Below are positions 23,819 through 23,928 of a stretch of 64,000 bases of DNA, one piece after another. Each line of letters starts with the position of its first letter. The stretch's first letter is position 1. The notes beneath the pieces are model-generated. The model was not told the DNA's origin, made no database searches, and saw nothing but the letters and a program-made list of their open reading frames with translations. Origin of the DNA: a virus (Duplodnaviria > Caudoviricetes); the IMG/VR virus record IMGVR_UViG_3300021399_000111, positions 32,001 through 96,000 of that record; one strand, written 5' to 3'. Position numbers and translations under genes: made by a program.

Positions 23819-23853
23819 TTCCTCCTTGAAAATAAAATACCACATCCTTGTGG
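23819..23853 (-). promoter_or_regulatory. Tandem CsrA-type binding sites in fliC leader
   Basis: Hairpin CCACAAGGATGTGG (23840-23853) and TTCAAGGAGGAA overlapping the SD (23819-23830), the same layout as the B. subtilis hag leader. Confidence 0.75.
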
Positions 23854-23899
23854 CAGTTAATATATTATAAAACTCTTATGAGTTTTATTTTCTATAATT

Positions 23900-23928
23900 A
23901 TTATAACAAAAATTTTATCTTTTGTCAA
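23900..23928 (-). promoter_or_regulatory. Sigma-A type promoter driving fliC
   Basis: TTGACA-17 bp-TATAAT with TG extension; no sigma-28 GCCGATA(T/A) box in the intergenic region. Confidence 0.8.

Follow-up and report, generated by a model that had tools for sequence, protein, structure and literature searches.

To our knowledge, the only phage-borne flagellin documented experimentally so far is that of the Enterobacter prophage FRphi. The published precedent is the FliCP-TldR module of this temperate, lambda-like phage, in which an RNA-guided TnpB derivative silences transcription of host fliC (PMC13418256, PMC10705468). Translational control of flagellin is known from bacterial genes. According to the account of Yakhnin 2007 and Mukherjee 2011 given in PMC13443453, Bacillus subtilis CsrA binds two GGA stem-loops of the hag leader, the second of which lies over the Shine-Dalgarno (SD) sequence, and FliW antagonises CsrA. 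CsrA proteins of Roseburia, Agathobacter, Oribacterium and another member of Lachnospiraceae repress the hag leader in a B. subtilis chassis (PMC13443453), and flaA mRNA of Campylobacter jejuni is a target of CsrA repression that can itself titrate the protein (PMC4894983). Flagellin promoters of Roseburia, Eubacterium and Butyrivibrio were predicted to be mostly of the sigma-28 type, with occasional promoters for the housekeeping sigma factor (sigma-43) (PMC3720852). Full-text literature search retrieved no paper describing the promoter and leader arrangement reported below; promoter replacement and repeated capture among related phages are new here.

The flagellin gene in question belongs to a phage with a genome of 141,935 bp (IMG/VR record with direct terminal repeats, rated complete; 33% GC). 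Bases 32001-96000 of this record constitute the 64-kb stretch that was analysed, hereafter the window, and coordinates below refer to it. No tyrosine integrase was found in the phage, which is probably virulent. Similarity of its flagellin points to a rumen or gut member of Lachnospiraceae as the host. The gene (23811-22999, minus strand, start codon 23811-23809) sits in a minus-strand block of replication genes. A Dda-like helicase (28625-27441), an HNH endonuclease (27435-26278), several small ORFs and a 144-aa ORF (24394-23960) are located upstream, and a DnaE-type polymerase (22888-18884) is located downstream, followed by a DUF3310 gene and NrdD. Three genes upstream of flagellin, a 91-aa ORF (24725-25000, minus strand) matches PHROG families of host RecBCD nuclease inhibitors (E 9e-12). 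Searches of the phage for csrA, fliW and sigma-70 region 2 returned nothing. TnpB/TldR (PF07282) had no match in the complete phage genome, the neighbours of flagellin being small ORFs, the HNH endonuclease, the helicase and DnaE. INPHARED phage records contained no close relative of the locus, and the flagellin matches detected there were all fragmentary or doubtful.

The encoded protein is a flagellin of the D0/D1-only type (270 aa) with Pfam domains Flagellin_N (5e-46) and Flagellin_C (9e-26). It is about 78-79% identical to Lachnospiraceae flagellins and can be aligned over its entire length with 270-aa flagellins of solved filaments. Of 130 columns that do not vary among eight diverse host flagellins, it keeps 127. 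L002, which is identical with contig L104, is a fragment of a related phage and syntenic with this region; comparison with its flagellin gives dN/dS of about 0.14 with dS near saturation. GC content at third codon positions (GC3) is 0.25, versus about 0.5 in the closest host relatives. The gene looks functional, is host-derived and has long been resident in phages. Its type is that of Butyrivibrio fibrisolvens, Roseburia and Eubacterium flagellin genes (PMC3720852). With FRphi the locus shares an intact phage-encoded flagellin with conserved D0/D1 core, which in the case of FRphi competes with host flagellin for the filament or takes its place there. The differences are that TldR, the defining feature of the FRphi module, and an integrase are missing here, that host post-transcriptional control appears to be kept, and that this flagellin is close to those of hosts, whereas the one of FRphi is highly divergent.

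According to the original prediction, fliC is preceded by TTGACA-17-TATAAT without any sigma-28 box and has been rewired to a sigma-A promoter of the phage. Both sequence observations were reproduced. Promoter scan identified the -35 hexamer TTGACA (23928-23923, minus strand) and the extended -10 element TGtTATAAT (23908-23900; TG at 23908-23907, TATAAT at 23905-23900), which together form a TTGACA-17-TGnTATAAT promoter (23928-23900) that matches 12 of 12 positions and is the top site of the region. The -10 element lies 89 nt from the start codon, and transcription is predicted to start at about 23893-23892. Perfect TTGACA-16/18-TATAAT sites, of which this is one, number 28 in the phage genome versus a mean of 0.4 in ten dinucleotide shuffles, so the flagellin promoter is not a coincidence of AT-richness. 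If up to one mismatch is allowed, 58 sites are found, compared with about 10 in shuffles. Members of this family have a spacer A-tract and TG in common, the latter being present in about 75-88% of them. Within the window, they lie 20-60 nt 5' of genes with the same orientation, among them nrdD, dnaE, the helicase gene and a tRNA array. The flagellin promoter is typical of the family except for its 89-nt distance to the start codon, and it is this family that it matches, including spacer A-tract and TG.

No CCGATA, the core of the sigma-28 box, occurs near fliC (the closest minus-strand copies are at 16210 and 35137), and no sequence of the form TAAA-N15-(G)CCGATA(A/T) precedes the gene. In contrast, CCGATA was found no more than 220 nt upstream of 88 of 106 host flagellin genes (80 Lachnospiraceae loci, closest relatives, identity up to 78%), often as part of a conserved TAAG...TTCCGATATATATAAT block. 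This comparison, together with the genome-wide promoter family, supports the rewiring that had been proposed. In Butyrivibrio fibrisolvens, Roseburia and Eubacterium, a housekeeping promoter accompanies and occasionally replaces the sigma-28 one (PMC3720852), whereas here the sigma-28 box is wholly absent. At the other end of the gene, a strong intrinsic terminator (22981-22960, minus strand; 9-bp stem with 6 GC pairs and a T-run) is preserved with compensatory changes in L002. Since this terminator follows the flagellin stop codon and the polymerase gene past it has its own promoter (22951-22923), flagellin represents a self-contained, monocistronic unit. An additional TATAAT (23868-23863), which has no -35 element, could give rise to a shorter transcript.

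Outside the window, at the genome ends close to the terminal repeats (G000:C1:184-5570 and 133930-141718), consensus sigma-A promoters are densely clustered on either strand. A downstream motif, e.g. GAAAAnTCGGC, is shared by many of those on the plus strand. These clusters look like a repeated early-gene or small-RNA region.

The leader extends over about 80 nt from promoter to ATG. Three hairpins are predicted by RNAfold in the segment 23893-23800. The first, at the predicted transcript start, is an AU-rich hairpin (23888-23867; 9-bp stem, loop AUAA) present in both the MFE and centroid structures. It may serve as a stabiliser; many host leaders have a hairpin directly after the CCGATAT box. 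The second, stem-loop 1, UGCCAC-AAGGAU-GUGGUA (23855-23838), belongs to the MFE fold, includes ACAAGGAUGU and exposes an AAGGAU loop (23848-23843); it resembles BS1 and is a candidate upstream CsrA site. The third, the BS2-like stem-loop 2, UUUUC-AAGGAG-GAAAA (23832-23817), presents the SD sequence as a GGA loop, so that the second GGA falls within SD AAGGAGG (23827-23821), 9 nt before ATG. The hairpin with CsrA-type GGA and the second AAGGAGG at the SD are thus both where the original prediction had placed them. With a permissive E-value, a search of 22800-24100 against Rfam produced only noise far under gathering scores, and no curated family covers the leader.

Pattern scan listed 23855-23838 together with TTTTATTTTC as terminator-like, and stem-loop 1 followed by this U-rich tract might therefore be taken for an attenuator, i.e. 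an intrinsic terminator limiting transcription into fliC. Such a role is hardly credible: the stem is weak (7 pairs, 3 of them GC), U-richness corresponds to background at 33% GC, and host leaders possess the same hairpin without the U-tract. The terminator reading of stem-loop 1 was rejected as weak and not conserved.

Host leaders display the same proximal layout as the phage flagellin leader. The consensus of 102 distinct host leaders reads GCnGC-AnGGAn-GCnGC, about 10 nt, UUCAAGGAGGAA and AUG, with AAGGAU, AGGGAA, AAGGAA and AUGGAA as loops of stem-loop 1. The helix of host stem-loop 1 is paired in 82% of cells and supported by 103 double changes, a value equalled in none of 500 shuffles and far lower in slid controls; the SD helix of host leaders is 81% paired with modest covariation. 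Covariance model R1, trained solely on these 102 bacterial flagellin leaders, matches 23874-23809 with 51.8 bits (E 7.7e-10 in the 64-kb window). That a model built from hosts only recognises the phage leader supports the proposal that a tandem CsrA-type leader has been kept. The runner-up in the window is the leader of phage fliD (20.3 bits, E 0.05). Weak model matches at 54.2-54.9 kb, where relatives carry their flagellin, were considered as a remnant leader and rejected, for they are ordinary SDs of two small ORFs. Genome-wide, the combination of ANGGAN-hexaloop hairpin, SD and start codon occurs at four sites, compared with 0.55 in shuffles. Stems of at least 6 bp (6-7 bp) are limited to two of these four, the leaders of fliC and fliD, and both have AAGGAU loops.

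Hairpins of this kind could also be generic RNA elements, that is, mRNA stabilisers or a ribosome standby site or SD-like enhancer ensuring high output independently of CsrA. Hairpins at the 5' end and strong SDs are indeed common in highly expressed Firmicute mRNAs, and a GGA loop resembles an SD. What is conserved, however, is the loop sequence itself and not just the presence of a hairpin, and this sequence agrees with the A(N)GGA hexaloop to which CsrA/RsmE binds. Moreover, the hag leader of B. subtilis, laid out in the same way, is repressed by CsrA proteins of Lachnospiraceae (PMC13443453). We regard a CsrA-independent role as improbable.

Some host leaders contain a further element. Of 104 flagellin leaders from Lachnospiraceae, 23 have GCGTACG(A/G) at a fixed distance of 73-90 nt ahead of the start codon, often inside GGAGCGTACGGCCGG (e.g. 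L020:1800-1909, L021:2900-3001, L032:2900-3001).

The flagellin of L002 is 73% identical to that of the window and occupies the same slot; helicases of the two phages are about 85% identical and polymerases about 82-85%. Stem-loop 1 of L002 differs by compensatory changes (CUUCA/UGAAG versus CCACA/UGUGG here), its SD hairpin is kept, and a 5' hairpin of different sequence occupies the corresponding place. No consensus promoter is found in front of L002 flagellin. Profile search in IMG/VR revealed further contigs that carry homologues of the phage's genes and have flagellin elsewhere. In L103 (146-kb contig), L105 and L109 (122-kb contig), it is embedded among homologues of the RNA-repair genes located at 53-56 kb of the window, and in L106 it follows a RecJ-like gene and lies immediately 5' of fliD. 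Related phages thus have flagellin at three different genome positions. All six phage copies (the window and five related contigs) possess two GGA hairpins with differing stems, the first loop being AAGGAU or AAGGAA and the second AAGGAG or AUGGAG, and none of the six has CCGATA within 200 nt. Family-type sigma-A promoters, on the other hand, are present only in the window and L106.

Because L002 keeps the leader without the consensus promoter, the exact promoter is specific to this phage, with a similar one in L106. The general feature is that the sigma-28 box has been lost and the leader retained. For the same reason, and because the upstream gene is not followed by a terminator, transcription by read-through may be as important as the promoter described here.

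According to a maximum-likelihood tree of 111 flagellins, phage flagellins require at least three separate origins among those of Lachnospiraceae by well-supported branches. Those of the window and L104 group with hosts L005-L008 (SH-aLRT 96), and that of L103 groups with L009, L013, L016 and L017 (SH-aLRT 98). In L103, homology to its host clade sets in with the 5' hairpin, which in hosts comes right after the CCGATAT box, as though it was the transcribed unit that had been captured. Nothing argues more strongly for selection on the leader in phages than the recurrence of a kept leader with a lost sigma-28 box. As a separate observation, flagellin leaders of L103 (2360-2503) and L109 (2400-2503) are placed directly after a tRNA-like 3' end (GGGTTCGAATCCCTACCC) that is called neither by ARAGORN nor by Rfam at gathering score.

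Apart from flagellin, the phage codes for the filament cap protein FliD (57459-58832, plus strand, 457 aa; Pfam FliD_N and FliD_C), whose gene is unlinked to the flagellin gene in the phage genome. Its promoter, as read from sequence, is TTGCGT-17-TGaTATAAT (57336-57364, plus strand), with an extended -10 and a -35 matching 3 of 6 positions. The leader (57414-57454, plus strand) consists of UGAGAAG-AAGGAU-UUUCUCA followed by an SD hairpin, UUUUAC-AAGGAG-GUAAAA, and obtains only a weak model score. GGA hairpin leaders of this kind are limited to fliC and fliD in the phage genome. No hairpin leader was found at the closest host fliD genes (38-45% identity, Butyrivibrio-like), which directly follow flaG, nor at fliD of L106; GGA hairpins are present at some distant Clostridia fliD genes. 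A FliS-like Pfam match within fliD (58521-58751, 19.8 bits) is treated as spurious since it is below cut-off and overlaps FliD_C; it probably reflects helical-repeat noise.

These comparisons bear on whether the flagellin leader is a passive relic that came along with the captured gene and regulates nothing in the phage. Host origin of the gene is clear, and short leaders can persist by chance. Yet the coding sequence has shifted to phage codon composition (GC3 of 0.25 versus about 0.5), and the AAGGAU loops stay and the stems compensate. The same layout is kept in all six phage copies, for which the tree demands at least three origins, and recurs at the unlinked fliD. We give the relic explanation little weight.

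Our main reading, to which we assign a probability of roughly 0.6, is that a host-derived flagellin unit has acquired a phage sigma-A promoter in place of the sigma-28 one and has kept the host-type CsrA leader, from which we infer gating by CsrA and FliW. The promoter and leader anatomy is well supported by sequence comparison. We know of no demonstration of CsrA binding to flagellin leaders in any member of Lachnospiraceae. The original prediction counted a host lacking csrA or fliW as evidence against it; in the five bacterial genomes with the nearest flagellins, taken as proxies for the phage's host, fliW and csrA are adjacent in every case. Likely hosts thus have both genes side by side, as does the system of B. 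subtilis, with which the locus also shares a flagellin leader of two GGA stem-loops, the second at the SD. By analogy, coupling of translation to export would be expected here. The locus is different from hag in being a phage gene without its own csrA or fliW and in having a consensus sigma-A promoter instead of a sigma-D/sigma-28 one, and its CsrA sites are candidates.

Under the main reading, host RNA polymerase with housekeeping sigma would transcribe fliC on the phage schedule, independently of FliA/FlgM. Host CsrA would bind both GGA loops and block ribosome entry; export of flagellin would free FliW, which would antagonise CsrA and relieve the block. Given such gating, phage flagellin would be made only as fast as existing export machines secrete it. 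The phage thus probably times transcription of flagellin and leaves translation to the feedback of host flagellum assembly. Phage FliC and FliD would constitute two distal filament parts added to existing basal bodies, and flagellin together with a cap gene carrying a matching leader might enable the phage, during infection, to build or regrow the filament of its host or to coat it anew. The purpose could be to maintain motility of infected cells, to change the filament in its role as a receptor or antigen, or to disturb the control of host flagellin.

The leader RNA might instead act mainly as a decoy that soaks up CsrA, or phage flagellin might soak up FliW, so that host flagellin would be derepressed or silenced and filaments would be secondary. 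The C. jejuni flaA mRNA, both target and antagonist of CsrA (PMC4894983), provides a precedent for such a sponge. Its 5' UTR is likewise a flagellin leader with two GGA-bearing stem-loops, though flaA is chromosomal, has a sigma-28 promoter and comes from a distant phylum. A very abundant transcript is predicted by the consensus promoter, and the D0/D1 core is conserved in the phage flagellin. Each transcript, however, offers two sites only, the flagellin is under strong purifying selection over its full length and the phage FliD cap protein argues for actual filament assembly. Within the known feedback loop, moreover, the sponge effect and FliW titration are opposite in direction. We infer that either kind of titration could occur, but as the principal function it seems distinctly unlikely.

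Timed transcription combined with gated translation suggests that Firmicute phages have found a solution different from that of FRphi, in which transcription is freed from the flagellar hierarchy and the host translational checkpoint is kept. Keeping this checkpoint would avoid build-up of cytoplasmic flagellin and share the export machinery. The locus may be viewed as a natural experiment separating transcriptional from CsrA/FliW control of flagellin, and its compact leader of about 80 nt would suit studies of CsrA recognition in Lachnospiraceae, where genetics is hard. It is also a lead on investment in filament and cap genes by phages of motile gut and rumen commensals. Flagellins of Lachnospiraceae are prominent antigens for the immune system, and host-microbiome interactions could therefore be affected where phages change the composition of the filament.

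A broader scenario is offered tentatively, as possible but on balance doubtful. A lineage of large, probably virulent Lachnospiraceae phages would have repeatedly captured flagellin units cut at the transcription start, comprising leader, coding sequence and terminator and never the sigma-28 promoter, and plugged them into phage transcription. In the phage described here, the AAGGAU leader would also have been given to fliD. The outcome would be a filament regulon timed by the phage and gated by CsrA/FliW, by which the flagellum of the infected cell is rebuilt or re-coated.

Flagellin genes were also encountered at other loci. L112, a 147-kb phage contig, carries a flagellin gene (2501-3694) with a single in-frame TAG at codon 55, the position of a conserved Q, and about 220 nt downstream of it a tRNA with anticodon CTA (3919-3992); it is probably a TAG-recoded phage. 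Two IMG/VR loci, L003 (2561-2619) and L004 (2560-2618), have a second match to the flagellin-type leader of about 31 bits, which precedes a gene with about 125 codons that directly adjoins flagellin on its 5' side. These loci have flagellin alone in common with the phage described here and may be host-derived pieces of a flagellar operon.
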